This document shows positions 5,226-62,311 of a stretch of DNA of 64,000 nucleotides, piece by piece (within the stretch, counting starts at the first letter, position 1; each line of letters starts with the position of its first letter). The position numbers and the translations under genes are program-made. Source of the DNA: a bacterium. Lineage in GTDB: Bacteria; Patescibacteriota; Dojkabacteria; JAKAPS01. The notes below the pieces were generated by a model, which worked only from the letters and a program-made list of their open reading frames with translations, was not told where the DNA came from and searched no databases. The stretch is taken from assembly GCA_021806925.1 (NCBI GenBank), contig JAKAPS010000004.1, positions 1,586 through 65,585 on the forward strand, written 5' to 3'.

Positions 5226-5254
5226 CAGATTGAATAAAGTTTTATTCAATCTAA
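5226..5254. terminator. 12-bp-stem hairpin (agattgaataaa / tttattcaatct) overlapping the stop of the Wzy-like gene. It is a likely intrinsic terminator.
   Basis: An inverted repeat was read directly, followed on the minus strand by a T-rich tract. Confidence 0.4.
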
Positions 5255-6493
5255 CTTCTTTATATATTCATCATCAAACAAATATAAACCTAATAAGAAG
5301 AATATAAATCCGTTAACAGGAAATATTTCAAAATAGGGGAGTCCTATTGAACCTATTAGAAATAAAATTATTAAGATTATGAGTTCAATATTTCTCCTGT
5401 TATTAAATATACTGGATATAAAAGAGTAGATGAATAATATAAATCCGATGATGCCAAAGCTATAAAATAACTGAACATAAGTGTCTTCTGAAAATGTAAG
5501 TTTATTTCCAAAAAAGAACTTTAATACTTTGGTTAATAAACTACTTCCAGTTTTAACAATTGTAGGATTTGTGAAATGTTTAATAGCACTTGGAAATTTA
5601 TTAACAATTTCTTTTGTATAAAGGCCCTTATCAAAAAGAATAACTAATATGGAGAGTATATAGAAAAATAGTATTACATACCCGTATCTATTTTTTATAT
5701 AAATTAAATAAAGACCATATAAAAACAGCAATATAAACGCTGTGAAAGAAAATGTTAATCCAATATATATTATCGATAAAATTATGAATATATAAGAATA
5801 TAGCTGTTTACTCCTTTCACTAAAGAACTTCATATTACTTAACACATCAATATTGAATATGAAATATACTACACCTAAAAATGTAAAATAAGCACTTCCA
5901 TTAGGGTCATCCCATAATCCTCCAAATCTTACTGAACCTCCACTATATGCAAGAGCAGGTAATCTATGTACCGTGAAGAATAATATTAGTTGAATAATAT
6001 CACTTGATACATTAATTAATAAAAACATGGAAAATAAATAAAATATTATATATTTAACATTTCTAAAATTACTAAAAAATATAGGTAATAAGAGTAGGGG
6101 AGTGAAAAATACGAACTTTATAATAAAATCAACACTGGAGTTCCTTATTAGCATATGCAAACTTGATAGATGAAAAACAACTGCAGATATAAGAATATAA
6201 ACAATAAAAAAAATGTACCATTTTATCTTTCCATATATTTTCTTAATATCTATTTTTTTTAATAACTCATTCTTGTGTATTATATAAATAAGTACAAGAT
6301 AAAAAATAAAGAATAATACATATTTAAATATTTGTATTGATAGCGGTGTATTATGATAAGTAGGTGATGTAAGTGTTGAATTTATCTTAAAAGGATATCT
6401 GTAAAAATAGAACAAGTACATAAAGATAAGCATAACTAAAGAAACAAGTTCATATATACTTATTCGTAGTTTATTTATCAAAGAGTCTATCAT
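5246..6493 (-). CDS. polytopic membrane protein, O-antigen polymerase/ligase (Wzy)-like
   Basis: 415 aa with about 12 TM helices and a loop motif GGSVRFGGLWDDPNGSAYF. It lies in the glycan locus. Confidence 0.45.
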   Translation of the reverse strand: MIDSLINKLRISIYELVSLVMLIFMYLFYFYRYPFKINSTLTSPTYHNTPLSIQIFKYVLFFIFYLVLIYIIHKNELLKKIDIKKIYGKIKWYIFFIVYILISAVVFHLSSLHMLIRNSSVDFIIKFVFFTPLLLLPIFFSNFRNVKYIIFYLFSMFLLINVSSDIIQLILFFTVHRLPALAYSGGSVRFGGLWDDPNGSAYFTFLGVVYFIFNIDVLSNMKFFSERSKQLYSYIFIILSIIYIGLTFSFTAFILLFLYGLYLIYIKNRYGYVILFFYILSILVILFDKGLYTKEIVNKFPSAIKHFTNPTIVKTGSSLLTKVLKFFFGNKLTFSEDTYVQLFYSFGIIGFILFIYSFISSIFNNRRNIELIILIILFLIGSIGLPYFEIFPVNGFIFFLLGLYLFDDEYIKKLD

Positions 6494-23795: not shown

Positions 23796-24977
23796 ATGGT
23801 CAATGGATTAAATGAGGCATATGGCAATGAATCTATATATAAACTGATTAATTTAGCATTAAAATCTATTAGTATCTTGAATAAGTTTACGCCTGATGAA
23901 AATACTAAGATAGAAGAAGTAATTGATAAGTATAGCAGTATAAACAAACGAGAATTTCATATTCAATATACCGAAGAAGATGGTCATATTCTTAACATAT
24001 TAGTAGGAGATGACGGTTCATTTGAAGCATACTATACAAAAAAAGATTGTGAAGAGCAACAAATAATTGGAATAAACAGAGTAAATAATGATGATAAAAC
24101 CTACTTAATAAATTTGAATGGAAAACACTTCTTATTAAAAATCGAATATTCAGAAGATGGAACACCAATAATACATGATACAATATCAAAATCAGATGAC
24201 AAATATAGACAACTAATATACCAAGTATTACTTGACTGGAAATATGCTTCAGATAAAATAATTGAAACATTTGATATTGCACTATCAATTGAATCGGACT
24301 TTAATCATATCCAAAACGAATTAGAAATACTATGTAAAGACGTGCTATATAAAATAGAAGGGGATGATGATGATGATGACGATGATGAGAATGACGATGA
24401 TGATGATGATGGGAATGACGATGATGATGATGATGGGAATGACGAGGACGATGATGGGAATGACGAGGACGATGATGATGGGAATGACGAGGACGATGAT
24501 GATGGGAATGACGAAGATGATGATGGGGGGGATGACGAGGATGTAAATGAAGATGATGGACATGATAGTGGTGAGAATACATATGATGGGATTGCTGCAT
24601 CAGGAAATATAACCAGAATGAGGGGTATAATGTATGCATATATTAGAATGGTAGCCGTATTAATAGATAATACTCTAATTGGGCCTAATTTTATTGAATA
24701 TATAGATCGGTTCAAAGATAAGAATATTCGTGCATCTATAAATAAAATTGATAATAGGTATGATAGATTTGAAGTAGTGTTTAATGAACCTTTTTTTATT
24801 AAATTTAACGTTAATGTTAATAATGTAGCAGATATTAATATTGAAAATATAGAAATAAATGCAAATGTAAATAAGTACCTACTTAATTTACTTTTAAATA
24901 ATAACCGTGCAGTCTTCAATTTATTTAGAACAATTTCACATATGATTGAGATAATAAAGGAATATAACAATGAATGA
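23796..24977 (+). CDS. hypothetical protein with a long poly-Asp/Glu tract (about 75 aa of D/E/G/N repeats). It is the first of three tandem distant paralogs.
   Basis: The 393-aa ORF is continuous through the repeat. It shares the ESIxxL N-terminal helix and the L..LLDW motif with the next two genes. Confidence 0.55.
   Translation: MVNGLNEAYGNESIYKLINLALKSISILNKFTPDENTKIEEVIDKYSSINKREFHIQYTEEDGHILNILVGDDGSFEAYYTKKDCEEQQIIGINRVNNDDKTYLINLNGKHFLLKIEYSEDGTPIIHDTISKSDDKYRQLIYQVLLDWKYASDKIIETFDIALSIESDFNHIQNELEILCKDVLYKIEGDDDDDDDDENDDDDDDGNDDDDDDGNDEDDDGNDEDDDDGNDEDDDDGNDEDDDGGDDEDVNEDDGHDSGENTYDGIAASGNITRMRGIMYAYIRMVAVLIDNTLIGPNFIEYIDRFKDKNIRASINKIDNRYDRFEVVFNEPFFIKFNVNVNNVADINIENIEINANVNKYLLNLLLNNNRAVFNLFRTISHMIEIIKEYNNE
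24361..24550 (+). repeat. imperfect tandem coding minisatellite with units of about 24-27 bp (gggaatgacgaggacgatgatgat). It encodes a (D/E)n-G-N acidic tract.
   Basis: Read directly. The antisense frames yield His-rich and Ser-rich mirror ORFs. Confidence 0.8.
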
Positions 24978-32608: not shown

Positions 32609-32718
32609 ATAACACTATTTTGCAACATATACAAAAAAAGACTGATATACTAATTCACTTTGAGTTTCCTTTCTAAATAAACCAAAGCTTTAAAGTATAT
32701 CAGCCTATTAACAAAAAT

Positions 32719-32752
32719 AAGGAACAAATAAATTGTTCCTTATTTAAGTATT
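32719..32752. terminator. hairpin aaataaggaacaa-ataaa-ttgttccttattt downstream of surface-protein paralog 1
   Basis: 13-bp stem with a T-run following on the minus strand. An identical copy lies at 37817-37852. Confidence 0.55.
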
Positions 32753-32760
32753 AATCAAAT

Positions 32761-33762
32761 TTACTTTACATTAAATACTACTCCAAGTTCTGGACCACAG
32801 TATCCATTTGCACAATCATGATTTGTTGATAAATAATATCCGTAACTATTTGCATCTACTTGATACTCTCCAGTTGAATTAAATGTAAATTCACTTACTA
32901 TTTGGAATGTGTTACCAGCAGAATATTTAGGATTATTCTTAGTTGCAATATATTGTATTGTACGTTGATATGGCGCAAAGTAGTTATATTCACCACTTGG
33001 AACTTTACTATTTAATTCATATGGAGTTTGACTTCCATTGGAGTTTATTTCATCTGCACTTATTCCTATATATTCATCTGGTATGTTTCTAACATGATTT
33101 ACTGTGTAGTCAGCTTTAACATCTAATACTGTTCCTGCAGGTATACTTATAGTATTCCCTTTTACACATATTATACTAGCTACTGGGTAACCTTGGTTAT
33201 AAACAGCATCAAAAACCATCTTTACACTGTAGTAATAATAATTATTAGATACTGTATAGGTTGAAGGACACTGTAATCCTGTTGGTGTTGGTGTCGGTGT
33301 TGCTACTGTAGGACTTACTGTTGGCGTTGATGTCGGTGTTCCTGTAGGACTTACTGTTGGTGTTGGCGTCGGTGTTGCTACTGTAGGACTTACTGTTGGT
33401 GTTGGCGTACTAGAAGTAGTACAAACTTCTTCTCGGTTTATTAATTGGCAGGAATTATTTGTTTTTGTTGGTGCAGTATTTCCTGTACTAGTTCCACCAC
33501 TTGTATTTGCACTTGAAAATACACTTCTGTCTCCACCGGAAACTCCGCTTGATATATTATTATATTGGGTTAAATGGTTTCTACCGTAATTACCCCCCAT
33601 AGAGAATATTCCTCTACTCTCTACGTTATTAATATAATTTCTGTTTAGAATCAAGAATGCAAAAACTGACAAAAGAGAAACAAAAGCAATTGATAATATC
33701 AATCCTTTCTTTAAACCTCCCTTTTCTTCAGTATCAATCTTTTTTATATTTATTGAACCCAT
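32761..33762 (-). CDS. membrane-anchored surface protein, paralog 1. It has an N-terminal signal anchor, a PT-rich mucin-like linker and a conserved roughly 130-aa C-terminal domain with a CxxxxC pair.
   Basis: The likely true start is the ATG (MGSINIKK) 6 nt after a consensus -10. The TTG start used by the track lies inside the -35. Its N- and C-termini are near-identical to 37863-38828. Confidence 0.6.
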   Translation of the reverse strand: MGSINIKKIDTEEKGGLKKGLILSIAFVSLLSVFAFLILNRNYINNVESRGIFSMGGNYGRNHLTQYNNISSGVSGGDRSVFSSANTSGGTSTGNTAPTKTNNSCQLINREEVCTTSSTPTPTVSPTVATPTPTPTVSPTGTPTSTPTVSPTVATPTPTPTGLQCPSTYTVSNNYYYYSVKMVFDAVYNQGYPVASIICVKGNTISIPAGTVLDVKADYTVNHVRNIPDEYIGISADEINSNGSQTPYELNSKVPSGEYNYFAPYQRTIQYIATKNNPKYSAGNTFQIVSEFTFNSTGEYQVDANSYGYYLSTNHDCANGYCGPELGVVFNVK

Positions 33763-33798
33763 AACTATATTATAGCACCCATAGTATAATAATGTCAA
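33763..33798 (-). promoter_or_regulatory. consensus sigma70-type promoter (TTGACA, 18 bp, TATAAT, 6 nt, ATG). The mRNA is leaderless or near-leaderless.
   Basis: Read directly on the minus strand. An identical copy sits upstream of paralog 2. Confidence 0.55.
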
Positions 33799-33806
33799 GG
33801 AGCTGA

Positions 33807-34745
33807 TTACTGCTTAAGCCTTTGTATAAATTCATTAGGAATATCAAGGGAAAATGAGTATTCCTTTCCTCTATATATAAATGTCAGACTTTTTGCAAGT
33901 AGATACATTCGTTTTTCATTTTTGGTCCCAGAATAGAGCTTATCACCTAATATAGGAGTCCCTAAGTATTTGAGATGAAGTCTAATTTGATGTGTTCTAC
34001 CAGTTTTCGGAGCTATTTTGAAAAGAATCATGTTATTCTTTATCTCGATTGGTGATATATATGATAGAGAATACTTAGATACTCTAAGTTTATTAGTAGA
34101 AAACATCATTTTTCTATACTCCCTTGGATTATGGGCTACATATCCCTCCACTTTAAATTCATTTTTATCACCATTTATATCTACAAATTTCCTTTCTATT
34201 GATAGCGATGAAGGTATTCCTATTGCAAGGTATTCCTTATACACCTCTCGTTTTGCAAACAACTCCATCAGCTCTCTTTGAGATTCATAGTTTTTAGCAA
34301 TTAAAAGTAACCCACTTGTATCTTTATCTATTCTATGAACAATATATGGTCTAGTTGTTACTGATTTTGGGAAAGACACGTCATTTAATCCGTATTTATA
34401 TACAAGCCAGTTAAGAACTGTATTTGCTCTTTCATTTTTAGATGTATGAACACTTACTCCTACTGGTTTATCTATGACCAGAAAATCATCATTTTCAAAA
34501 ATAATAGGAATATCCATATTTGCAGGTTCAATTGTTTTAAAACTGTTTTTAATTGATTCATTCTGTTGTAGAACAGCATCCAAAGTATTCTCTTGTATAT
34601 AGACTATATCACTGCTTCTTGTCATTTTTGAAGGGTTAGTAACAAATGTATTATTTAATTCAACCTTCCCATCACGGATAAGATGGAGTATTTGAGTTCT
34701 GGAAATTTGCGGATATTTTAAACTTGCGAGTTTATCGAATCTCAT
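33807..34745 (-). CDS. RluA-family pseudouridine synthase with an N-terminal S4-like domain
   Basis: HRIDKDTSGLLLIAKN catalytic-Asp motif. Confidence 0.85.
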   Translation of the reverse strand: MRFDKLASLKYPQISRTQILHLIRDGKVELNNTFVTNPSKMTRSSDIVYIQENTLDAVLQQNESIKNSFKTIEPANMDIPIIFENDDFLVIDKPVGVSVHTSKNERANTVLNWLVYKYGLNDVSFPKSVTTRPYIVHRIDKDTSGLLLIAKNYESQRELMELFAKREVYKEYLAIGIPSSLSIERKFVDINGDKNEFKVEGYVAHNPREYRKMMFSTNKLRVSKYSLSYISPIEIKNNMILFKIAPKTGRTHQIRLHLKYLGTPILGDKLYSGTKNEKRMYLLAKSLTFIYRGKEYSFSLDIPNEFIQRLKQ

Positions 34746-37621: not shown

Positions 37622-37816
37622 AACTTTTTGGATTATATATTAAAAGAAGGAAGAATGGAAGAAACAAAACACAAGTATATATAGATGAATAATAAAGATA
37701 AGAGAAAACAAATGCTGTATGCAGTATGTAACAAAAAAGACTGACATACTAATTCCCTTTGAGTTTCCTTTCTAAATAAACCAAAGCTTTAAAGTATATC
37801 AGTCTATTAACAGAAA

Positions 37817-37852
37817 TAAGGAACAATATATATCTTGTTCCTTATTTGAGTA
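37817..37852. terminator. hairpin identical to 32719-32752, downstream of surface-protein paralog 2
   Basis: Same inverted repeat, aaataaggaacaa...ttgttccttattt. Confidence 0.55.
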
Positions 37853-37862
37853 TTAATCTTAT

Positions 37863-38828
37863 TTACTGTACATTAAATACTATTCCAAGTTCTGGACCAC
37901 AGTATCCATTTGCACAATCATTATTTGTTGACAAATAATATCCATAACTATTTGCATCTATTTGATATTCGCCAGTTGAACCAAATATAAATTCGCTTGC
38001 TATCTGGAATGTGTTACCAGCAGAATATTTAGGATTATTCTTTGTTGCAATATATTGTATTGTACGTTGGTATGGTGCAAAATTTCTATATTCACTACCA
38101 GGTACCTTACTATTTAATTCGTATGGTGTCTGACTTCCATTTAGATTTATTTCATCTGCACTTATTCCTATATATTCATCAGATATATTTCTTGTATGAT
38201 TTATTGTGTAATATGCTTCAACATCAACAGTTGATCCTACTGGAATACTTATTTTAGTTCCATTAACACATATTCCATTTTTATCAGTTAATATTAATTT
38301 TACTGAATAGAAATAATTATTATCTGCATTAGTCATAATGTATGTTTCACTGCATTGTATAGCATTACTTGTTTTTTTACTTTGTATTTTATTAATTAGA
38401 TTTGAAAGATTATTACCAGCGTTACTGAAAATTTTATTTATATTTTGTGTGCCTTGTCCTTGTGACATTTTTACTGGTGTAGGATTACAATCTAATAATC
38501 TAACCAATACTATTGGAAGTGGGCATTTATTATTTGTAACAAAATTATTATTTAATGTTGTTTGTTGTTTCTTAGTAGAATTATCAGATGGTTTATAGTC
38601 AGTCCTTGAATTATATGTAACAACAGATGATATACCATTCGAGTTCCTACTATAATTACCACCCATAGAGAATACTCCCCTACTCTCTACATTGGATATA
38701 TAGTTTCTGTTTAATACTAGGAACGTAAATACTGATAAAAGAGAAACAAAAGCAATTGATAATATCAATCCTTTCTTTAAACCTCTCTTTTCTTCAGTAT
38801 CAATTTTTTTTATATCTATTGAACTCAT
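37863..38828 (-). CDS. membrane-anchored surface protein, paralog 2. It has the same N-terminal anchor and C-terminal domain as paralog 1 but a different stalk (N/S/T/K-rich, no PT repeat).
   Basis: Direct protein comparison with 32761-33762. The ATG is MSSIDIKK after an identical promoter. Confidence 0.6.
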   Translation of the reverse strand: MSSIDIKKIDTEEKRGLKKGLILSIAFVSLLSVFTFLVLNRNYISNVESRGVFSMGGNYSRNSNGISSVVTYNSRTDYKPSDNSTKKQQTTLNNNFVTNNKCPLPIVLVRLLDCNPTPVKMSQGQGTQNINKIFSNAGNNLSNLINKIQSKKTSNAIQCSETYIMTNADNNYFYSVKLILTDKNGICVNGTKISIPVGSTVDVEAYYTINHTRNISDEYIGISADEINLNGSQTPYELNSKVPGSEYRNFAPYQRTIQYIATKNNPKYSAGNTFQIASEFIFGSTGEYQIDANSYGYYLSTNNDCANGYCGPELGIVFNVQ

Positions 38829-38864
38829 AACTATATTATAGCACCTATAATATAATAATGTCAA
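38829..38864 (-). promoter_or_regulatory. consensus sigma70-type promoter, a duplicate copy (TTGACA, 18 bp, TATAAT, 6 nt, ATG)
   Basis: Sequence identical to 33763-33798 except for one spacer base. Confidence 0.55.
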
Positions 38865-38968
38865 GGAGCTGATTACTGCTTAAGCCTTTGTATAAATTCA
38901 TTGGGAATATCCCAGAATACTTACTGCAGTAGATATTGACAAATATATATATATAGTAACATTATGGT

Positions 38969-39136
38969 ATGAACGAAAATCAATATGAACCCTGTGAATC
39001 TGAAGATAGAAAAACTATTAGTAAAGTATCTAGTGCATGTTCTAATGCTGGTATGAACGAAAATCAATATGAACCCTGTGAATCTGAAGATAGAAAAACT
39101 ATTAGTAAAGTATTTAGTGCATGTTCTGATAAATGT
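38969..39136 (+). repeat. two near-identical 84-bp tandem copies, in frame
   Basis: Copy 1 spans 38969-39052 and copy 2 spans 39053-39136. They differ only in the last roughly 10 bp. Confidence 0.85.
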
Positions 39137-39385
39137 AAAAAAATTATTAGTGAACATCCAAAAACTAGTTTTGTGCTAAGTGGTCTCGCGTTAGGTACAC
39201 TGTATGTGCTTTCAACACATTTTCCATCTGTAATTGTTGCAAATCTTATATCTACTGGATTTTTCTTTAGAGCTTTTTTTGATCCAAGAGATTGGAGGAA
39301 AATAAATAAAAAAAAGATAAATATTTATACTATATTTCACTTTGTTCTAATTTTATTTATCCTTAAGTTTGTTCACCTCCATTGA
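38969..39385 (+). CDS. small membrane protein whose N-terminal 28 aa is tandemly duplicated
   Basis: MNENQYEPCESEDRKTISKV(S/F)SACS occurs twice, then a TM segment. The DNA carries an 84-bp direct tandem repeat. Confidence 0.45.
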   Translation: MNENQYEPCESEDRKTISKVSSACSNAGMNENQYEPCESEDRKTISKVFSACSDKCKKIISEHPKTSFVLSGLALGTLYVLSTHFPSVIVANLISTGFFFRAFFDPRDWRKINKKKINIYTIFHFVLILFILKFVHLH

Positions 39386-42966: not shown

Positions 42967-43362
42967 TTATGATATTAATTTTCTGAATTTTGCAGTTATC
43001 CTATCATGGAATGAATTTACAACATAGAACCCCGATTCAAACATCAAAGTATTCAGGAATACTATATATATCACTGATAATACTATTGAGATTGCTTCAA
43101 GATATTGCAATGGAGTATTTGATAATTGAAATCCATTCATAAATCCAAGAATAGTTGTGTTCAATGAGAAACTTCCGAATATTGATGTCTCCAGAAATGC
43201 TTCTAAAGCAAGTGCTAAAGACACTATTATATTCCTGTATTTTGCCTTTTCATCAAAAACATTATATAAAGCTCCTAAAAGGAATACAGTTATAAAGGAA
43301 TGCAACACAAACCTAACACAAAGTGCAAATAACAAATATTTTAAAAAGTTCTCCTTATTCAC
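42967..43362 (-). CDS. small membrane protein, hypothetical
   Basis: 131 aa with 3-4 TM helices. Confidence 0.35.
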   Translation of the reverse strand: MNKENFLKYLLFALCVRFVLHSFITVFLLGALYNVFDEKAKYRNIIVSLALALEAFLETSIFGSFSLNTTILGFMNGFQLSNTPLQYLEAISIVLSVIYIVFLNTLMFESGFYVVNSFHDRITAKFRKLIS

Positions 43363-43765
43363 TTATTTGAGGTTCATCATCATTTGGAAGATCATTAGGA
43401 TCAATCCCATATTTACCTAATATTGTTAATTCATCATTTGGCTTACCAGCTTGTACATCAGATACAAGTGAATCAAAATCCCCTATTGCTCCTTTTAATT
43501 CATCTCTAAAAATATCTAAGTATCTTATTAAATTAGGACTCGAATTTGCAATATCACTAAGTTGACTTGCATCCATACTAAAAAGACTTGGATCAGATAC
43601 AAGTTTTTTTTCTTCTTCAGTTAAAAATGTCAGGTCTTGTTTAGACATATTTGCACTTGCCATAACAACAACCTGTTGTAATATTGTTCCTGATTCTTCA
43701 TTACTAAATCCTAAGCCTGATAACTTAGATTGAAACTCTATCAATAAATTTTTTATATCATCCAT
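43355..43765 (-). CDS. hypothetical protein with an acidic C-terminus
   Basis: 136-aa ORF that overlaps the downstream gene by 8 bp. Confidence 0.35.
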   Translation of the reverse strand: MDDIKNLLIEFQSKLSGLGFSNEESGTILQQVVVMASANMSKQDLTFLTEEEKKLVSDPSLFSMDASQLSDIANSSPNLIRYLDIFRDELKGAIGDFDSLVSDVQAGKPNDELTILGKYGIDPNDLPNDDEPQISE

Positions 43766-43842
43766 ATACCCATATATTATACCATGTTGAGATTAAATGC
43801 AATTAGAATGATAAAATAGCACTTGAATCTAAAACAGATGAA

Positions 43843-44076
43843 TTATTCATATAAATATTTATCAATATTTGTAGAAATATCAGTTATATCTGTATGAATT
43901 GCGTTGTTAGAAATCCATAATAATGCCTTTACACTATTTTTCTTCTTACTCTCTTTTTCTAAACCTGTTTCTAGGAGTGTCCTAATTACTTCTGCAACTG
44001 GTCTGTTTTTTCTATGTGCAAGTATCCTAATACCTTGATAAATTGGTTTTGTTAAGTATACTTGTGTTCTTATCAT
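43843..44076 (-). CDS. ribbon-helix-helix (CopG/antitoxin-like) small DNA-binding protein. It is a candidate orphan antitoxin or regulator.
   Basis: 77 aa. The N-terminal beta-strand plus helix pattern IRTQVYLTKPIYQGIRILAHRKNRPVAEVIRTLLE is RHH-like. It is a weak call. Confidence 0.35.
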   Translation of the reverse strand: MIRTQVYLTKPIYQGIRILAHRKNRPVAEVIRTLLETGLEKESKKKNSVKALLWISNNAIHTDITDISTNIDKYLYE

Positions 44077-44508
44077 AATTATATGCTATATGTTAAACAT
44101 ATAATATATAAATAGTTTGTATTTGTCAATATTATCTTGTGTGATTTATGAATTTAGAAAATAAATGAATTAACCATTCTTATATTATAGCGTTCTCATA
44201 TAAAACGGGAAGCATAGAATCAAACTAAAAATACACTAATACAAATACTGCTAACTCACCTTTTAGAACGTCGATTAATGCTGTTTTCTCCTGATATTAA
44301 TATAAAGTATTTATATGGTTACTTTGGAATAATAACAACAATTTTATAAGACACAATCTGTTCAAGCCTTCCCAAGGCATATTATAACAATATGTGGCAG
44401 TATTTATGTAAATAGATTGTCAGGTTATTTTCTTATAAAGGATATATCATTTTATCTCATTGTGACTTCTTGTTCATGCAGAGTATAATAATTTTGAAAG
44501 AAAATGTA

Positions 44509-45270
44509 ATGAAAAACACATTTGTTTTTATTGACGAGAGTGGTACTAAAAAGCAAGATAGATTTTTTCTTGTTGGATTTTTACGCCTAACAAATCCAGA
44601 TAAATATTTCAAAACATATAGTTTATATAAGGATAAGTTATATGGGCGGAGCCGAGAAGAGAGAGTAAAAAGAGTAGCGTTATTACATGATGAGAATAAA
44701 ATACATGAATTAGCACTTTTAGCTAAGAATCCAAGTAAATTCGAACTTAAATATTCAAAAATTAACAAGGATAATCAAGACATTTATAAAAAATTGTTGG
44801 AAACCCTATGTGATATAGGATTTCATTTTGTCGTTATCGGTATTGACCGTCGAGACCCTAGTTTTCATGATACTTCTGGACTTATTGCATCGTATAAAAG
44901 AATTATTAATCAATACCTTCAAAAATATGGCAAAAAAGACGATTGCATATTACTTGATGATTTTGGAATACAAATAGTAAATATTTGTGAACAGAAGCTG
45001 TTACCAGATTATTTTATACGGATAAGATCGGAATCTCTAATCTATATGGAAATTGTTGATATTTTGACTGGGCTCTCAGGATTTGCCATGCACAATTGGG
45101 AAGTGAGTAAGAAAGATCAAGTGCGAGAAGGTATATTAAGAACATTTCAAGCAAAGCTAGAAAAACAAATTAAAGTTAATCAAACAATAGAAACTGAAAA
45201 AATATATTATTCAACGTGGGTTTTGAATTTCAGTAAGGGCCATGGACATTACCCCAATCCCTTACAATAA
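44509..45270 (+). CDS. DUF3800-like protein (N-terminal FIDESG motif)
   Basis: MKNTFVFIDESGTK at the N-terminus and a length of about 250 aa fit the family. TATAAT lies 20 bp upstream. The track ORF starts at an upstream TTG at 44470. Confidence 0.5.
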   Translation: MKNTFVFIDESGTKKQDRFFLVGFLRLTNPDKYFKTYSLYKDKLYGRSREERVKRVALLHDENKIHELALLAKNPSKFELKYSKINKDNQDIYKKLLETLCDIGFHFVVIGIDRRDPSFHDTSGLIASYKRIINQYLQKYGKKDDCILLDDFGIQIVNICEQKLLPDYFIRIRSESLIYMEIVDILTGLSGFAMHNWEVSKKDQVREGILRTFQAKLEKQIKVNQTIETEKIYYSTWVLNFSKGHGHYPNPLQ

Positions 45271-45617
45271 ATATTGTAATATATTTTCACTTTGAATACA
45301 AATCAGAGTAAGGTGAACTATTTTCACTAGATTCCGTATTGCAATGCTTTTTTAAACAGAAGAAGCAAAATTACGTTGGATAAAATATGTTTTAGTAAAG
45401 TACACACTTTTATATACCTGCTTAACCCTTCTACCTCTATGGAAAAAAGGGTGAATAGCTACATAGTGAGTAAGGGAGAATATGAAGAGATAATTCTAGC
45501 AAAATATCACGGATTGTGTATATTAAATGAAACTGAATCGAAAAATCAAAAAAGTGGTATTAATATAAGGAAGCTGTTAATCGTACAGCTTGATATGGTT
45601 ATAAGGAAATTGAAAAA

Positions 45618-45704
45618 CGGAGAGGGTGAGATTCGAACTCACGGTATGCGTTAACATACGACGGTTTTCAAGACCGTTACCATAATCCACTCGGTCACCT
45701 CTCC
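45618..45704 (-). tRNA. tRNA-Ser (anticodon UGA), type II with a long variable arm and no encoded CCA
   Basis: The reverse complement is GGAGAGGTGACCGAGTGG...CTTGAAA...GTTCGAATCTCACCCTCTCCG. It has a 3-bp D-stem, a variable-arm hairpin GTATG/CATAC and discriminator G. Confidence 0.85.
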
Positions 45705-45801
45705 AATAACTTTCTAGTGTATTATACCTTACCTTACGCATATATATCAATAAGATATTTTTTATGATATAATGTTAACACAAAAGTTGAAGTAGTAATC
45801 T

Positions 45802-46122
45802 ATGAAAAAAAATATACATCCTACATCTAACATGGTGAATACGACATGTCTTTCATGTGGAAAAGCATATGTTATAAAGAGTACATATAGCACAATAAAG
45901 GTTGAAATATGTTCAAATTGTCATCCATTTTATACAGGGCAACAAAAGATTGTTGACTCTGCAAATAAGGTAAGTGATTTCAATAAGAGATTAGCTCAGA
46001 AATCTGATAATGTAATTTCAAGGAAAGATAAGAATAAAAATAGAGCAAAGCATACAGTTACAGAGATAAAAGGAGAAAGAACACTAACTCTTAAAGATAT
46101 GTTACAACAGTTCAAAAAGTGA
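45802..46122 (+). CDS. rpmE: 50S ribosomal protein L31 (zinc-ribbon type) with a C-terminal extension
   Basis: MKKNIHP...CxxC...CSNCHPFYTGQQK. Confidence 0.8.
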   Translation: MKKNIHPTSNMVNTTCLSCGKAYVIKSTYSTIKVEICSNCHPFYTGQQKIVDSANKVSDFNKRLAQKSDNVISRKDKNKNRAKHTVTEIKGERTLTLKDMLQQFKK

Positions 46123-47120
46123 TTCAAAATCTCTCTGATTTAAAGAAACGTATTGAAGAAACCGAAAAGAGTGATTTATTAGGTCTATCAATTTTAAATC
46201 AGTATAAAAGATTCCTTGAATCAGATATCGACATTGATAAACAATTAGTTGATTTAGATTCAATTGATTCTCCTGAACTTAAGGAATATATAGAAGAAGA
46301 AAAGCTCAAATTAAAGGAGAATAAGCAAAGTAATTACCAAACATTCCTAAATAATGTAAAAAATATATATCTGGAAGATGATTTTCAGAATTGTATAATT
46401 GAGTTAAGAGCTGGTGCTGGAGGAAATGAAGCATCACTGTTCGCAAACGATTTATACAGTATGTATACAAATTATTGTAACATCAAAAGGATAAAATATG
46501 AGCCACTTTTTACATCATACTCCCCTGCTGACGGTTTTAAGGAAGTAGGATTTAAAGTTTATGGAGGTTACTACAGCTTTAAATACGAAGGAGGAGTTCA
46601 TAGAGTCCAAAGAGTTCCAGTAACTGAAAATATGGGTAGAATACATACATCAACTGTAAGCGTGGCTATATTGCCAGAGATATCTGATACAGACTACAAA
46701 ATATCAGATAATGATCTTAAAATTGAAACATTTAAAGCATCTGGACCAGGAGGCCAAAAAGTGAATAAGATAGAAAGTGCAGTTAGAATAACTCATATTC
46801 CAACAGGACTGACTGCATCATGTCAGGATTCAAAATCACAACACATGAATAAAGCAAATGCACTAGAATTGATTAGATCGAGAGTATGGAGCTACTATAA
46901 ATCAAAAGAGGAAAAGCAAATCCAATCCTTAAGAACTGCTCAAATAGGTCAATCAATGAGAGCTGAAAAGATAAGAACATATAACTTTCCACAGGATAGA
47001 GTTACAGACCATAGAATAAATAAATCATTTTCAAATATATTTAAAATAGTAGATGGAAATAACTTTGAAGATATATCAAGATCACTCCATGAATTCTATG
47101 ATTTACAAATACTTGATTGA
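46119..47120 (+). CDS. prfA: peptide chain release factor 1
   Basis: GGQ motif SGPGGQKVNKIESAVRITHIPTG and RVQRVP...GRIHTS. It lies upstream of prmC, which is typical RF1 synteny. Confidence 0.85.
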   Translation: MIQNLSDLKKRIEETEKSDLLGLSILNQYKRFLESDIDIDKQLVDLDSIDSPELKEYIEEEKLKLKENKQSNYQTFLNNVKNIYLEDDFQNCIIELRAGAGGNEASLFANDLYSMYTNYCNIKRIKYEPLFTSYSPADGFKEVGFKVYGGYYSFKYEGGVHRVQRVPVTENMGRIHTSTVSVAILPEISDTDYKISDNDLKIETFKASGPGGQKVNKIESAVRITHIPTGLTASCQDSKSQHMNKANALELIRSRVWSYYKSKEEKQIQSLRTAQIGQSMRAEKIRTYNFPQDRVTDHRINKSFSNIFKIVDGNNFEDISRSLHEFYDLQILD

Positions 47121-48027
47121 TCCATTATCTAATACATATAACGAAGAAGTACTTCTATTTTCATATATATTTGAATTAGATTATTCTACATTTCTTTTGA
47201 ATAATATAAATAATCAAGATAAAAAGAGTAGATATAATGATAACAAGTCTATTTCAAACAAATACAATGCTAAATTAGACGAACATCTCTTGAAAAAATT
47301 TGAATTTCTAAGGAAAAAGATCGTATTTGATTCTGTACCAGTTCAATATATTACGAAAGGTGCATATTTCTTTAAGGATAAATTCTACGTTAACAACAAT
47401 ACACTTATACCGAGAAGCGAAACTGAATTCATACCAGAATTCATATTAAATTGGATTGATACACATACAAAAATTAAACCCACTTTATATATGGATAATA
47501 TAGATGTATTGGATATATTCACAGGAAGCGGAGCTATTGGACTAAGTATTGCAAAATATTATAAATCTAGAATTAAACCTAATATATATTTATCGGATAT
47601 TTCTGAGTCTGCATTGACTGTAGCAGATATAAACAGGAAAACTCTTGTTCCTAATACACCAGATATAAGATTAATAAAATCAGATTTATTTAAGAATAAA
47701 AGAATTAAATATATTAAATTTGATGTCATATCTGCCAATCCTCCATATATTCCAAGACGGAGTATGAGAAAATTAAATGCTAGGGTAAAAAATGAACCAC
47801 GTATAGCCCTGTTTAGGAAAGGCTCAAACATCATAAGAATATTTCTTAAACAAGTTGTTTCTCACATTAAAGAAAATAATAGCATATGTATAACAGAGAC
47901 AAATGACAATGACTTTAAGTTATATAAATATATTAACAAAAGGACAAAGAAGAATCACCCCTCTTTCAAGGTATCATATATAAAAGATATCTATGGAATA
48001 CATAGGTACATTCTAATTGAAACCTAA
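47089..48027 (+). CDS. prmC: release-factor glutamine N5-methyltransferase PrmC/HemK
   Basis: NPPY motif ISANPPYIP and SAM-binding LDIFTGSGAIGL. The start is placed at an internal Met (47089 or 47098). The track start at 47053 overlaps prfA by 68 bp. Confidence 0.8.
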   Translation: MNSMIYKYLIDPLSNTYNEEVLLFSYIFELDYSTFLLNNINNQDKKSRYNDNKSISNKYNAKLDEHLLKKFEFLRKKIVFDSVPVQYITKGAYFFKDKFYVNNNTLIPRSETEFIPEFILNWIDTHTKIKPTLYMDNIDVLDIFTGSGAIGLSIAKYYKSRIKPNIYLSDISESALTVADINRKTLVPNTPDIRLIKSDLFKNKRIKYIKFDVISANPPYIPRRSMRKLNARVKNEPRIALFRKGSNIIRIFLKQVVSHIKENNSICITETNDNDFKLYKYINKRTKKNHPSFKVSYIKDIYGIHRYILIET

Positions 48028-56731: not shown

Positions 56732-56774
56732 AAAAATACTTGACACAAAACTTGACAGAAGGCTTGACAGAAAT
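56732..56774 (+). repeat. 41-bp element with three TTGACA hexamers at 12-bp spacing (acTTGACAcaaaacTTGACAgaaggcTTGACAg). It lies upstream of fic and is copy 1 of a direct repeat pair.
   Basis: Read directly. It also provides a -35 box for fic. Confidence 0.8.
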
Positions 56775-56791
56775 ATATACTGACAATACAA

Positions 56792-57805
56792 ATGTTTTTA
56801 CCTAAATATGAATATACAAACACAATTATATCCAACACGAATACAATAGAAAGACTTTATGGACAATTGGAAAGTATACATATTCCAAAGAATTTAATGC
56901 TCAATCTTCAAAATGAGAATATAATCACATCAACATATTCATCAAACAAAATTGAAGGCAATCCGTTAACCCATTTGGAAGTAACAAATTTGTTATTAGG
57001 TGAAAGAGTCCCAGTAAACAGAGCAGAAAAAGAAATAACTAATTATTTCGATATTTTGAAAAGTATCAACAAAAGTATTGATAAAGAGATTAATATTCAA
57101 CTTATGCTTGAATTTCATAATAAGTTGTTAACAGGTATAAATGATGAGATAAAAGGTAAGATAAGAAATGTCGAAGTTGTTGTTGGGAGATTTGATGAGA
57201 ATTCTCAATTAATAGCAAGACATATACCTCCATTCTCTACAAGAGATAAAATATCAGAGACACTTAATGACTTGTTTTCATGGGTCAATACAGAAAATGA
57301 TATTGTTAAAGTACTAAAAATCGGTATATTTCATCATCAATTTGAATATATACATCCTTTTGAAGATGGCAATGGTAGAATAGGTAGATTACTTTCATCA
57401 TTGCTTTTCCTAAAATACAATTACGCAATAAACAAGTATTTCATACTTGATGACTATTATGATATTGATAAGATTGAATATTCAAATAAATTACATTCTG
57501 CAGATTTTGGTGATGAGACTAAATGGCTTGAATACTTCACAAATGGTATAATTTATTCACTACAATCATCAATAGATAAATTAAATAAAGGATTATCAAA
57601 GTTATCAATTTCATTAAGACCAACAAAGAAGGAAGAAGAAGTTTTGCATCTTATTCAAAAGTACCATGAAATAACTTCACAAAATATATCATCAGAAATG
57701 GGAATTTCAAGACAACAAGCATTCAATCTTCTTAAATCTCTTACAGAGAAAGGATATATTGAAAGAAGAAATAAATCTAAGAATACATATTATGTCCTCT
57801 TATAG
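56792..57805 (+). CDS. fic: Fic-family protein (adenylyltransferase-type fold) with an N-terminal inhibitory SxxxEG motif and a C-terminal winged HTH
   Basis: HPFEDGNGRIGR is the HPFx(D/E)GNGR motif. SSNKIEGN matches (S/T)xxxE(G/N). The C-terminal segment LHLIQKYHEITSQNISSEMGISRQQAFNLLKSLTEKGYI is a wHTH. Confidence 0.9.
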   Translation: MFLPKYEYTNTIISNTNTIERLYGQLESIHIPKNLMLNLQNENIITSTYSSNKIEGNPLTHLEVTNLLLGERVPVNRAEKEITNYFDILKSINKSIDKEINIQLMLEFHNKLLTGINDEIKGKIRNVEVVVGRFDENSQLIARHIPPFSTRDKISETLNDLFSWVNTENDIVKVLKIGIFHHQFEYIHPFEDGNGRIGRLLSSLLFLKYNYAINKYFILDDYYDIDKIEYSNKLHSADFGDETKWLEYFTNGIIYSLQSSIDKLNKGLSKLSISLRPTKKEEEVLHLIQKYHEITSQNISSEMGISRQQAFNLLKSLTEKGYIERRNKSKNTYYVLL

Positions 57806-57879
57806 CGAAGTTAAAAAGTTGCATAATATATACTACCCTAACATATATAAACTCTAATCATGTTATTTATTAATGTATT

Positions 57880-57921
57880 AAAAATACTTGACACAAAACT
57901 TGACAGAAAGCTTGACAAAAG
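57880..57921 (+). repeat. second copy of the triple-TTGACA 41-bp element (39/41 identical), 75 bp downstream of fic
   Basis: Read directly. Confidence 0.8.
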
Positions 57922-57932
57922 ATTGCTATAAA

Positions 57933-59276: not shown

Positions 59277-59314
59277 TTCCTAGTATATTATACAACAATT
59301 TATATACAAACATT

Positions 59315-59390
59315 AATTTATTTAAGAATATAGCAACTTCTGTTATTTTTCATATCAATTACCTCAAATCCTTTTTCGATTGATAACTTA
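59315..59390. repeat. 76-bp exact copy of the cysS 3' end plus 15 bp of its downstream flank. It is the left direct repeat bracketing the ATPase cassette.
   Basis: Identical to 60836-60911. A further 13-bp match (ttaaagagtaatc) follows after a short indel. Confidence 0.85.
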
Positions 59391-59534
59391 AAGAGTAATC
59401 TTAAAAAAGAGACTACTTTGAAATATATTCAGAAAATAGGAATTTGAGTAATCAGATGCAGATATCACTTCATTTAATCGACAAATTGTAATATACACTT
59501 GACAAATTAACCCCTTATTTTGTAAAGTATACCT

Positions 59535-60712
59535 ATGTATATACACCGCTTTGTAGAAAAATCATTAGAAAACCTTTTAAGGGATCCAAAATTTTTATTC
59601 TCCTTGGGGCACGTCAAGTAGGGAAAACCACCCTTATTGAACCCTTAGTTCGAAAGAGAATTGGATTATTACTCAACTGCGATATTGATATTGATAAATC
59701 AAGATTGTTAGCTTCTAGTTCGCTACACCCCTTTGAAGCTATGAAATTTTTTGGTAATCCAAAACTTCTAGTCATTGATGAAGCACAAAACTTACCAGAA
59801 ATTGGAAGAATTGTAAAAGGTTGGTATGATGCTCGTGTTACTACAAAGATAATACTACTTGGGTCATCAAGCCTTAATTTATTAGACCTTACTGCAGAAC
59901 CTCTTACTGGAAGAAATGAAAAAATCTATTTAACACCACTGTTGTTTAGTGAAATTCTCAAGAATCAATCATGGCTTACTCCAGAAGTAACAAAATCGAT
60001 TCTTGAAGAACAATTTAAAGATCAAATTCAAACCTTGCTTTTACAACAAATGGTATATGGTAGCTATCCGGAAGCAATTACAACAGTTGATAAAGAGAGG
60101 TATCTACTAAATTTGACATCCGATTATTTACTCAAAGACGTCTTACAAAACGGACTGGTAAAATCTCCTGAGCCAGTAAAAAAACTTTTATCTATGATTG
60201 CATATCAAGCAGGAAATGAAGTATCTATTAATGAACTTGCTATGAATTTACACACCTCTAGACAAACAATAGAGCGATATATAGAACTACTTGAAAGGTC
60301 GTATGTAATTTTTAAAGTACATGCATTTAGTACAAACCAACGAAAGGAAATTGTTAAAAACTCAAAAATATTCTTTTGGGATACAGGTGTACGTAATGCA
60401 CTTCTTAAAGAATTTTCTCTTTCACCGTTCAGGTCTGATATAGGTTCACTGTTTGAAAACTGGGTTGTTTCAGAAGTAGCCAAACTTAATTTAATAAAAG
60501 GAGATAAAAATAATATTTACTTCTGGCGCAAAAGAGATGGCAGTGAAGTGGACTTAATTGTAAAAGGAACAAATACATTCAAGGCATATGAAATGAAGTG
60601 GTCAAAACTAAACATAACACAATCAGCAAAAAGTTTTTCTAATACCTACAATATACCAGTTAAAGTTATCACAAAAGATACAATACTGGACTTGTTGTGG
60701 GAAGAAAAATAG
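59535..60712 (+). pseudogene. AAA+ ATPase of the DUF4143 type (Walker A GARQVGKTTL), disrupted by a frameshift in an A5T5 homopolymer (ccAAAAATTTTTatt) at about 59588-59597
   Basis: The ATG at 59535 encodes MYIHRFVEKSLENLLRDPKFLF and then stops. The rest (ILLGARQVGKTTLIEPL...) is in the -1 frame with no in-frame ATG. The track ORF 59705-60712 is the 3' part, starting at TTG. Confidence 0.6.
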
Positions 60713-60835
60713 AGCTCCTAGATATATTTACAGATATAAGAAAAATTATTCAGTAATATAACAGATGGCTTATTTTCCTTTTTGTATATACAGTTGTGAT
60801 ACTATTCCATAACGCATATTTAATATTTATACAAA

Positions 60836-60911
60836 TATACAAACATTAATTTATTTAAGAATATAGCAACTTCTGTTATTTTTCATATCAATTACCTCAA
60901 ATCCTTTTTCT
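60836..60911. repeat. right direct repeat, the native 3' end of cysS
   Basis: Identical to 59315-59390. Confidence 0.85.
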
Positions 60912-62311
60912 TCTAAATCCTGTTTTAATTTATCACTTAAAGAGTAATCCCCGATATTTTTCGCTTCACTCCTTCTATTAATCAGTTCGTTATACTCCTC
61001 ATCCTTACTATTTGATGCTTCAACCATTAAATTAAAATCAAAACCCAATACACTTCCTATTGCATATATATTAGATATCTTTTCTTTAGATGCCATATCA
61101 TTCCTTTTTAAAATGTCATGAATTAATGCAATAGCTTTTGATGTATTAATATCATCTTCCAGGCACTCTTTTAATTTAACTAAATATTCATTTGAAAACA
61201 TATCATACACTGGAGATACACTGCCGTGAGTACTTGTACTCCGTAATGGAGTGGCAGAATCATCCTCTGCAAATAATCTTATCTGCCTTATTATTCCATA
61301 TATAGCTCTGTACGCATTAAGAATTGCTTCTTTAGAGAAATCTATCATGCTCCTATAATTTCCTGATAGAAATAGATATCGTAAAGCTTCAGGAGCATAT
61401 TTTGTGTTAGCTTTTAATTCAGAATTTAATATACTTTCAACATCATCAAGTGTATAGAAATTGTTTTTGCTTTTACTCATCTTTTCACCATTTATTGTTA
61501 TAAAAGCATTATGCAACCAATAATGTACAACTTGTTTTCCTGCTATTGAATCTGATTGAGCTATTTCATTTGTATGATGAGGAAATATCAAATCACTTCC
61601 GCCAGTATGAATGTCAAATTCATCTCCTAAGTATTTCATACTCATTGCACTACATTCAATATGCCAACCAGGATAACCTTTTCCCCATGGAGAATCCCAC
61701 AGCATTTGGTGTGTCGGATCATCAAGCTGCCATAATCTGAAATCCTTTTGCGACTTCTTTTCTACAGATTCATTTAGATTATCCCTTGAATTATCCATAA
61801 GTTCATCTGTTTTCTGTCCAGATAGGTTATAGTAAAGAGGAAATTTAGTTACATCAAAATATATTGCCTCATCTGTCCTATATGCATATCCTTTTTCTAA
61901 AAGTATCTCGATTAATTTTATCTGCTCTTGAATATGATCGGTAGCTTTAGCTAAAACACTTGGTGGTAATATATTTAATCTATCCCTATCTTTTAAAAAT
62001 ACATCAGTATATTTTTTTGCAATTGCCCATACATCTAAATTATCAATTTTTGCTTGTTTTTCCAGTTTATCTTCTCCCTTATCTATATCCCCTACAATAT
62101 GACCTACATCCGTTATATTCATTACATTGAATACATCATATCCTAGAAATCTGAAACTTCTAACCAAAATATCAGCAAAAATGAATGCACGCCAATTGCC
62201 TATTGTAGGGTTTGAATATACAGTTGGTCCACAGCTATATATCTTAACCATTCCTTTAACAATTGGTTTAAATTCTTCTAGCTGTTTTGATAATGTGTTG
62301 TATAATTTCAT
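60851..62311 (-). CDS. cysS: cysteinyl-tRNA synthetase whose HIGH motif reads TIGN
   Basis: CGPTVY...TIGNWRA in place of HIGHAR. KMSKS is present as GEKMSKSKNN. The zinc ligand WHIECS is present. Confidence 0.85.
   Translation of the reverse strand: MKLYNTLSKQLEEFKPIVKGMVKIYSCGPTVYSNPTIGNWRAFIFADILVRSFRFLGYDVFNVMNITDVGHIVGDIDKGEDKLEKQAKIDNLDVWAIAKKYTDVFLKDRDRLNILPPSVLAKATDHIQEQIKLIEILLEKGYAYRTDEAIYFDVTKFPLYYNLSGQKTDELMDNSRDNLNESVEKKSQKDFRLWQLDDPTHQMLWDSPWGKGYPGWHIECSAMSMKYLGDEFDIHTGGSDLIFPHHTNEIAQSDSIAGKQVVHYWLHNAFITINGEKMSKSKNNFYTLDDVESILNSELKANTKYAPEALRYLFLSGNYRSMIDFSKEAILNAYRAIYGIIRQIRLFAEDDSATPLRSTSTHGSVSPVYDMFSNEYLVKLKECLEDDINTSKAIALIHDILKRNDMASKEKISNIYAIGSVLGFDFNLMVEASNSKDEEYNELINRRSEAKNIGDYSLSDKLKQDLEEKGFEVIDMKNNRSCYILK

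Follow-up and report, generated by a model that had tools for sequence, protein, structure and literature searches.

A one-base frameshift in a PDC-S01-type ATPase gene lying between duplicated cysS ends in a patescibacterial genome

PDC-S01, described as an ATPase that carries a PD-(D/E)xK domain, has been reported to rank fourth in frequency among the "defences" of prokaryotes and is a defence candidate that came out of a "guilt-by-embedding" approach (PMC12988326). The sole representative tested gave E. coli no protection against T7, T5 or T4, and is not among the four candidates found to be protective. DUF4143, the C-terminal domain that we discuss below, is listed among the PD-(D/E)XK families (PMC3424549). 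Here, we report on a gene of this type in a 64,000-nt window, by which we mean the whole stretch of DNA analyzed (positions 1,586 to 65,585 of contig JAKAPS010000004.1, assembly GCA_021806925.1, from a member of the Dojkabacteria). The gene begins at an ATG at position 59535 and its reading frame is broken at codon 20 by the lack of a single base. We consider it probable that this reflects a real and very recent deletion, and that a horizontally acquired cassette gene of the PDC-S01 type has here only just become a pseudogene.

Compared with PDC-S01, the locus displayed a full-length match to the hidden Markov model (PADLOC PDLC04789, E = 8.2e-114, residues 1–388 against profile positions 1–373 of 375, in the repaired frame only) and the same order of AAA+ P-loop, winged helix-turn-helix (wHTH) and C-terminal PD-(D/E)xK-like domain, the difference being the frameshift in the window copy. 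As in the programmed −1 frameshifting of dnaX and of IS3-family transposases, the window gene continues downstream in the −1 frame, with an A-run at the junction, but the window site has no X XXY YYZ heptamer, no hairpin or pseudoknot, and no conservation among homologues. With homopolymer-frameshift pseudogenes and contingency loci it shares a one-base change in run length close to the 5′ end of a defence-type accessory gene; unlike contingency loci, it has tracts of only 4 and 5 bases, which are of the same length in two assemblies and which relatives do not carry. Att-flanked elements and cis-mobilizable elements offer a further comparison, in that the direct repeats in the window are copies of the target's 3′ end and leave that target, cysS, intact, divergence is seen solely at the inner end of one copy, and one family member (locus L041, see below) has filled and empty sites together with cassette-linked last codons of its target gene. 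The window element differs from these in its size of ~1.5 kb and in having no tyrosine or serine recombinase, and across the family both the length of the repeat and the target vary from locus to locus, which argues against one fixed att core.

In agreement with the first-pass annotation of this DNA, the ATG at 59535 opens a frame, MYIHRFVEKSLENLLRDPKFLFSLGHVK*, that soon stops, ending after 28 codons at a TAG (59619–59621). The frame one base behind it (starting at 59534) reads ...KIFILLGARQVGKTTLIEPLVRK... and remains open until the TAG at 60710–60712, and this −1 frame contains the Walker A motif and the rest of the ATPase, in all ~372–373 codons. That this continuation has no in-frame ATG had also been noted, and indeed ATG, GTG and TTG are all absent from it between the upstream TAA stop at 59489 and the TTG at 59705. 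Since there is no earlier start codon in frame, the mechanical list of open reading frames (ORFs) begins a 335-aa ORF at this TTG and thus reports the 3′ part only, as had been pointed out, while the public annotation (P0002) contains just 323 aa from the ATG at 59741. An open frame of 372 codons in DNA of ~31% GC, together with a match to an intact homologue at E = 8e-213, indicates a real gene and not a chance frame.

The two frames meet within an A/T run. The earlier placement of the switch at about 59588–59597 was accurate, since we located a one-base shift within 59588–59596, but the description of the tract as A5T5 needs correcting: the junction is ccAAAATTTTTatt, with A4 at 59588–59591 followed by T5 at 59592–59596, and A5T5 is the in-frame (intact) sequence. 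Inserting one A gives a 392-aa protein with the junction ...DPK-IFILLGARQVGKTT..., and inserting one T gives a protein of the same length with the junction ...DPK-FFILLG.... The N-terminus, length and domains of the repaired protein all agree with those of its homologues, of which we found >6,000, the best intact one (P0001) being 82% identical and also 392 aa long. The repaired protein is colinear with >100 relatives, all beginning MYI.R, and the close homologues start with MYI(H/K/R)R and have the junction K-[VI]-[IV]-I-L-L-G-A-R-Q-V-G-K-T-T-L (pattern MYI.R...K[VI][IV]ILLGARQVGKTTL). From the start and the junction sequence of these homologues, we concluded that the ATG at 59535 is the true start and that the window copy is short by exactly one base. 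The comparison with orthologues that had been recommended was made with relatives and bore this out at the DNA level: when six relatives were aligned over their 5′ regions (A2), all six had one extra base at the site, where their sequences (AAAAAGTAATT, AAAAATTATC, TAAGGTTATA and others) differ from that of the window. Across 91 family loci, 88 are single-frame and two are cut by contig ends, leaving the window copy alone as shifted.

The proposed identity of the product, a DUF4143-type AAA+ ATPase, was confirmed by Pfam searches with the repaired 392-aa product, which identified AAA_14 (PF13173) at residues 18–142 (E = 2.9e-23; 82.7 bits, cut-off 27), HTH_11 at 224–256, and DUF4143 (PF13635) at 201–357 (E = 3.9e-36; 124.6 bits, cut-off 28.1). 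An AlphaFold2 model (predicted local distance difference test score, pLDDT, of 81) consisted of an AAA+ core with a helical lid, a winged helix and, at the C-terminus, an alpha/beta domain. A fold search with the full-length model returned only generic AAA+ proteins (ORC/Cdc6, RuvB, RFC, STAND, MuB/TnsC) and nothing function-specific, and a sequence search of the PDB yielded a single marginal P-loop match. When the C-terminal 127 aa were modelled alone with AlphaFold2 (pLDDT 70) and compared with the PDB, the matches were individually weak (E 0.007–0.2); the best were R2 endonuclease, Hjc, RecU, Can2/Cdn1, McrC, AvaII and Bax1, which we take to be mostly PD-(D/E)xK-type nucleases. These weak fold matches agree with the invariant residues D340, E353 and K355 and with the superfamily in which DUF4143 has been placed in the literature. 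Judged by its sequence, then, the product is an AAA+ ATPase with a winged helix and a predicted PD-(D/E)xK nuclease domain, and belongs to the COG1373 / AAA_14-DUF4143 family. Among 145 near-invariant columns it shows a single conservative deviation, the same as its intact close relatives, and with no second lesion in the gene the deletion, if real, must be very recent.

The first-pass annotation had left three options open for the frameshift, namely recent pseudogenisation, a homopolymer sequencing error, and a slippery site for programmed or phase-variable expression. We favour the first of these, regard error as less likely, and disfavour the last. If a base had been dropped in the reads or during polishing, the genome would truly contain A5T5 or A4T6 and the gene would be intact, and three observations are what such an error would lead one to expect: the lesion falls in a homopolymer pair of a 29–33% GC genome, the gene is otherwise flawless, and 88 of 88 full-length relatives are intact. 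Runs of 4–5 bases are, however, short for platform indel errors, and the k-mer-based Logan assembly of SRR13206618 is identical to window positions 59348–60864 (1,517 nt), A4T5 included. Furthermore, when the ORFs of the window were mapped (67 long ORFs, 89% coding), we saw no split gene among the ~66 others, and a 5.8-billion-protein collection that includes Logan contains no intact allele of >82% identity. We therefore consider a sequencing or consensus error unlikely. In the split-gene check, Pfam was run, among same-strand neighbours, only on the single 68-nt overlapping pair (46119–47120 and 47053–48027), which is not a split gene but two genes, one prfA-like and one for a methyltransferase; the only gap of comparable size in the window holds a small ribbon-helix-helix (RHH)-like ORF.

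A recoding event, programmed or stochastic, in which tRNA-Lys slips by −1 on A_AAA, or phase variation of the tract length, would instead render the gene switchable. The slip would have the right outcome, as a P-site tRNA-Lys moving from AAA at 59589–91 to 59588–90 gives the expected ...DPK-IFILLGARQ..., and an AAGGGA motif is present 4 nt 5′ of the run; defence genes are, moreover, classic phase-variable loci. On the other hand, the 0-frame codons, CCA AAA TTT TTA, leave a single-tRNA slip on A_AAA as the only possibility, the 95 nt from 59586 to 59680 fold no better than shuffled sequences (z = −0.79), and the site is not conserved, the aligned relatives being unshifted. Since the host makes essentially no use of Shine-Dalgarno (SD) sequences, an SD-like stimulator such as AAGGGA is also unlikely to work. 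The tracts of contingency loci are typically ~7–8 bases long, and A4 and T5 are well below this and short for slippage; we saw no long simple-sequence tract (≥7 bases) with length heterogeneity here, the two assemblies being identical. Recoding or phase variation thus appears highly improbable. We give just as little credence to a functional shortened product, made either from the TTG at 59705 or the ATG at 59741, or from a non-canonical ATT at 59591 or 59597 that would retain the P-loop. The frame beyond the shift is conserved and open throughout, the 323-aa P0002 is in the public annotation, and the in-frame ATT codons lie just 5′ of Walker A, but a product from 59705 or 59741 would be without Walker A, a motif that does not vary among family members, the conserved promoter sets the transcript start at the ATG at 59535 and so favours leaderless initiation there only, and no listed family member is naturally so short, barring shorter calls of unexplained cause.

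Our preferred reading remains that the deletion is probably biological rather than a read error, and several points speak against it. Both assemblies were probably built from the same reads (SRR13206618), and the shift may reflect a systematic error in the reads, or a mixture of alleles with the intact one in the minority. The wholly undamaged 372-codon remainder is equally expected of a sequencing artefact. There was no close relative in the collections searched, and hence neither an intact orthologue nor an empty site with which to compare the locus. Finally, no integrase is found within or beside the cassette, so its mode of integration is argued only by analogy with L041. If the deletion is indeed real, the full-length protein would not be made from the window allele, and the ATPase gene, an accessory one, is probably costly.

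The cassette (59378–60834, 1.46 kb) lies between cca and cysS, and is bracketed by the final ~115 nt of cysS, duplicated in att-like fashion. At the core of this duplication is a perfect 76-nt direct repeat comprising the last 19 codons of cysS, the stop codon and 16 nt downstream, and the left copy translates on the minus strand as ...EKGFEVIDMKNNRSCYILK*. Substitutions are confined to the inner end of the repeat (0 of 76 positions versus 3 of 23; Fisher p = 0.011). At either end, the 1,517-nt Logan contig breaks off exactly 30 nt into the repeat copy, so that from the assembly graph alone a 1,533-bp circle and an integrated copy cannot be told apart. The only ORF of at least 100 aa between the repeats is the ATPase, in which Pfam shows no recombinase domain.

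The host is a deep-branching, poorly sampled lineage with a GC content of 29%. Its CysS has its nearest non-self relative at 49% identity among 5.8 billion proteins, and the few named matches are mostly from Patescibacteria. The GTDB representatives scanned included neither the host genome nor a close relative, exact look-ups of the window CysS and CCA proteins gave no match and hence no alternative contigs or empty site, and no comparison genome with a CysS of >49% identity was available to provide an empty site for the window cassette. The ATPase, on the other hand, has a homologue at 82% identity, versus ≤49% for the host CysS, and this marks it as foreign; sequence comparison shows it to have been acquired horizontally. 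Its homologues at 60–74% identity are named as Ktedonobacteraceae, Verrucomicrobiae, Armatimonadetes and Roizmanbacteria, a locus with 61% identity is found in a Saccharibacteria metagenome-assembled genome, and the family occurs on 260 plasmids and is rare in phage records. The GC content at third codon positions of the ATPase gene (0.23) matches that of the host.

Upstream of the gene, ~60 nt are conserved (AAATCGACAAATTGTAA..CACTTGACAAATTAACCCCTTATTTTGTAAAGTAT) and travel with it, nucleotide homology to locus L082 beginning at 59476. This module consists of a palindrome, ACAAATTGT (59481–59489), a −35 box, TTGACA (59499–59504), and a −10 box, TAAAGT (59523–59528), and holds the best-ranked promoter-like site (10/12). 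From its sequence, the palindrome could be a putative operator for the wHTH. As the −10 box is only 6 nt from the ATG at 59535, the ATPase mRNA is probably leaderless, and no SD sequence is present upstream of this ATG. An examination of SD spacing had been suggested as a means of deciding whether this ATG is favoured, but this proved uninformative for start choice because the host almost never uses SD sequences, with an SD-like tetramer at only 4 of 44 ATG starts in the window. The sequence of these starts suggests that leaderless or very short-leader mRNAs are widespread in the host. A TATAAT-like box is often found 6–12 nt before the ATG in the window (e.g., 5246–6493, 9035, 20200, 43355–43765). 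Across the unrelated genomes that share the module, its −10 box lies 6–9 nt before the ATG. In L082, the module occurs at 67–166 and again at 1776–1875, 1.7 kb downstream, before a different sequence.

Flanking repeats recur across the family. We compared the 1.5 kb upstream with the 1.5 kb downstream of the gene at 72 loci, scoring same-strand repeats of ≥40 bits, and used as controls 104 intervals of the same size shifted by 3.3 or 4.5 kb. Repeats flanked 18 of the 72 loci (25%) versus 3 of the 104 shifted controls (p = 1.6e-5), and 13 of 72 remained once tandem gene copies and simple-repeat flanks were dropped (p = 9e-4). The repeat-flanked loci include L009, L011, L012, L036, L039, L041, L046, L052, L063, L071, L080, L081 and L083. 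The repeats are locus-specific, 33–400 nt long and 74–100% identical, often start ≤15 nt from the stop codon, and often correspond to the 5′ or 3′ end of the adjacent host gene. None of the eight loci from plasmid and phage collections (L088–L095) had a flanking repeat, so the pattern is not universal and has so far been seen on metagenome-derived contigs only.

We found related contigs for one case, L041 (4872–7320), from a rumen member of the Bacteroidales, where the site is downstream of a 325-aa lipoprotein gene beside sodA. In empty relatives, L096 (host ORF 94% identical) and L097–L100 (88%), the host ORF runs straight to the next gene, and in the filled relatives L102 and L103 (87%) the cassette occupies the same site without a remnant copy. 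The last five host-ORF codons abutting the cassette in L041 have the synonymous codons of L102 (CAA-ATC/CTC-GGC-ATC-AAG/A), while the downstream remnant copy keeps those of the empty site (CAG-TTA-GGA-AT.), and the mismatches are clustered there (p = 0.0016). As read from the sequences, such a pattern is what marks an attL/attR-type (Campbell-type) integration, where the host-gene end would be supplied by the incoming DNA itself. By analogy, the window repeat, with its diverged inner end by the promoter, fits the L041 scheme.

In family pairs of 80–85% identity, homology stretches from ~50 nt before the ATG as far as the stop codon; as these boundaries may reflect selection at that divergence, we left them out of the definition of the termini. 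A possible second N-terminal lesion, in L101 (339 aa, compared with 375 aa in L102), was rejected: the 5′ 220 nt are identical up to the last few bases, and the difference in length is therefore probably due only to where the gene caller set the start. One and the same 400-aa family protein (P0006) is encoded in L084/L085 and L086, whose contigs diverge 171 nt after the stop; L086 has an IS1595-family transposase gene where the contigs diverge, and L084 has a tyrosine recombinase gene two genes upstream. In L088 (Treponema saccharophilum plasmid pTS1, 859–3640), a Fic family gene lies directly upstream of the ATPase, echoing the SoFic/ATPase arrangement in the window.

Table 1. Positions of the ATPase gene, its flanking repeats and associated features in the window.
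Feature	Position	Strand	Evidence
Truncated N-terminal frame, 28 codons + TAG; first 19 codons = true ATPase N-terminus	59535..59621	+	Homologues begin MYI(H/K/R)R, reach K19
A4T5 run, site of one-base deletion (probable), frame shift −1	59588..59596	+	Alignment A2: one extra base in each relative
ATPase remainder, 373 codons, −1 frame, to TAG 60710–60712	59591..60712	+	Invariant residues, AlphaFold2 model
Internal start candidates of ORF callers, TTG 59705 and ATG 59741; products without P-loop	59705..59743	+	ORF list; P0002
Walker A, GARQVGKTT (−1 frame only)	59606–59632	+	Columns invariant in alignment A1
Walker B, VIDEAQ (−1 frame only), including D82-E83 at 59777–59782	59771–59788	+	Columns invariant in alignment A1
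wHTH	~residues 212–264	+	
PD-(D/E)xK motif (predicted): D340, E353, K355	60551–60553, 60590–60592, 60596–60598	+	All three invariant
Conserved upstream module travelling with the gene	59476..59534	+	Conserved in L082, L083, L084, L087, L002 and L003 despite unrelated flanks
Left copy of perfect 76-nt direct repeat; non-functional cysS 3′-end duplicate	59302..59377	.	100% identity to 60835–60910
Diverged inner extension of left repeat, 3 mismatches in 23 nt + 16-nt deletion versus cysS 60911–60949	59378..59400	.	Adjoins promoter side of cassette
Right copy of 76-nt direct repeat = functional cysS 3′ end	60835..60910	.	
cysS (cysteine-tRNA ligase), target gene	60851..62311	−	Pfam tRNA-synt_1e/1g on homologues
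Single-gene cassette with SoFic-type Fic+wHTH gene (56792–57805)	56732..57932	+	PADLOC SoFic, E = 1.6e-51

Other parts of the window also showed repeats and putative accessory genes. The SoFic gene is flanked by its own 41-nt direct repeat (56732–56772 and 57880–57920, 95% identity), which has three CTTGACA motifs and whose right copy adjoins the cca stop, and the window thus holds, among housekeeping genes, two single-gene cassettes of defence type side by side, both flanked by a repeat of their own. Two ~1.2-kb segments (32621–33845 and 37720–38911), ~90% identical and 5.1 kb apart, hold paralogous genes (32761–33798 and 37863–38864, minus strand) with internal GTTGGTGTTGG-type repeats. Just beyond, at 38965–39130, an 84-nt unit is tandemly duplicated (98% identity) at the start of the ORF at 38969–39385, and a long GAT/GAC/GGA-rich imperfect repeat at 24334–24591, in the ORF at 23796–24977, encodes an acidic D/G-rich stretch. 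The region from 43766 to 45270 contains the largest non-coding gap of the window (704 nt) with a 77-aa ORF (43843–44076, minus strand), which we presume to be RHH-like, followed by a DUF3800 gene (44470–45270) with a weak PADLOC PDC-M04A match, near a tRNA-Ser gene (45617–45705); this region may be another accessory insertion.

Taken together, these observations lead us to view the locus between cca and cysS as a horizontally acquired cassette made up of a conserved promoter and one ATPase-nuclease gene. Its entry would have occurred by Campbell-type or att-type integration, as at L041, with the cassette bringing its own copy of the cysS end. One base has most likely been lost from the A5T5 (or A4T6) run at codon 20, such that translation from the true ATG would end once 28 codons have been read, with neither the P-loop nor any later part of the protein being made.

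On its own, the frameshift matters little, as it makes for an ordinary accessory pseudogene that is annotated as a 323-aa fragment without a P-loop, and it means that a PDC-S01 match in this genome does not amount to a working system. The evidence that the family behaves as a small integrative cassette is suggestive. We put forward only tentatively, and as a rather doubtful proposition, the wider idea that PDC-S01 genes are single-gene integrative cassettes (promoter plus ORF) spreading between genomes, and not ordinary resident defence genes. If this were true, the cassette would carry a host-gene end, insert in Campbell or att fashion and leave locus-specific duplications of 30–140 nt, which would let the target gene survive and permit precise excision; the window would then show a dead copy still sitting between att-like repeats, and the "embedding" behind the call of PDC-S01 as a defence candidate would partly reflect an insertion habit. 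PDC-S01 is reportedly among the commonest candidate defence systems of bacteria and archaea, and if the cassette's own promoter, the repeats flanking about a quarter of the loci, and the case with filled and empty sites all hold, the family would be mobile, which would affect predictions made through "guilt-by-embedding."

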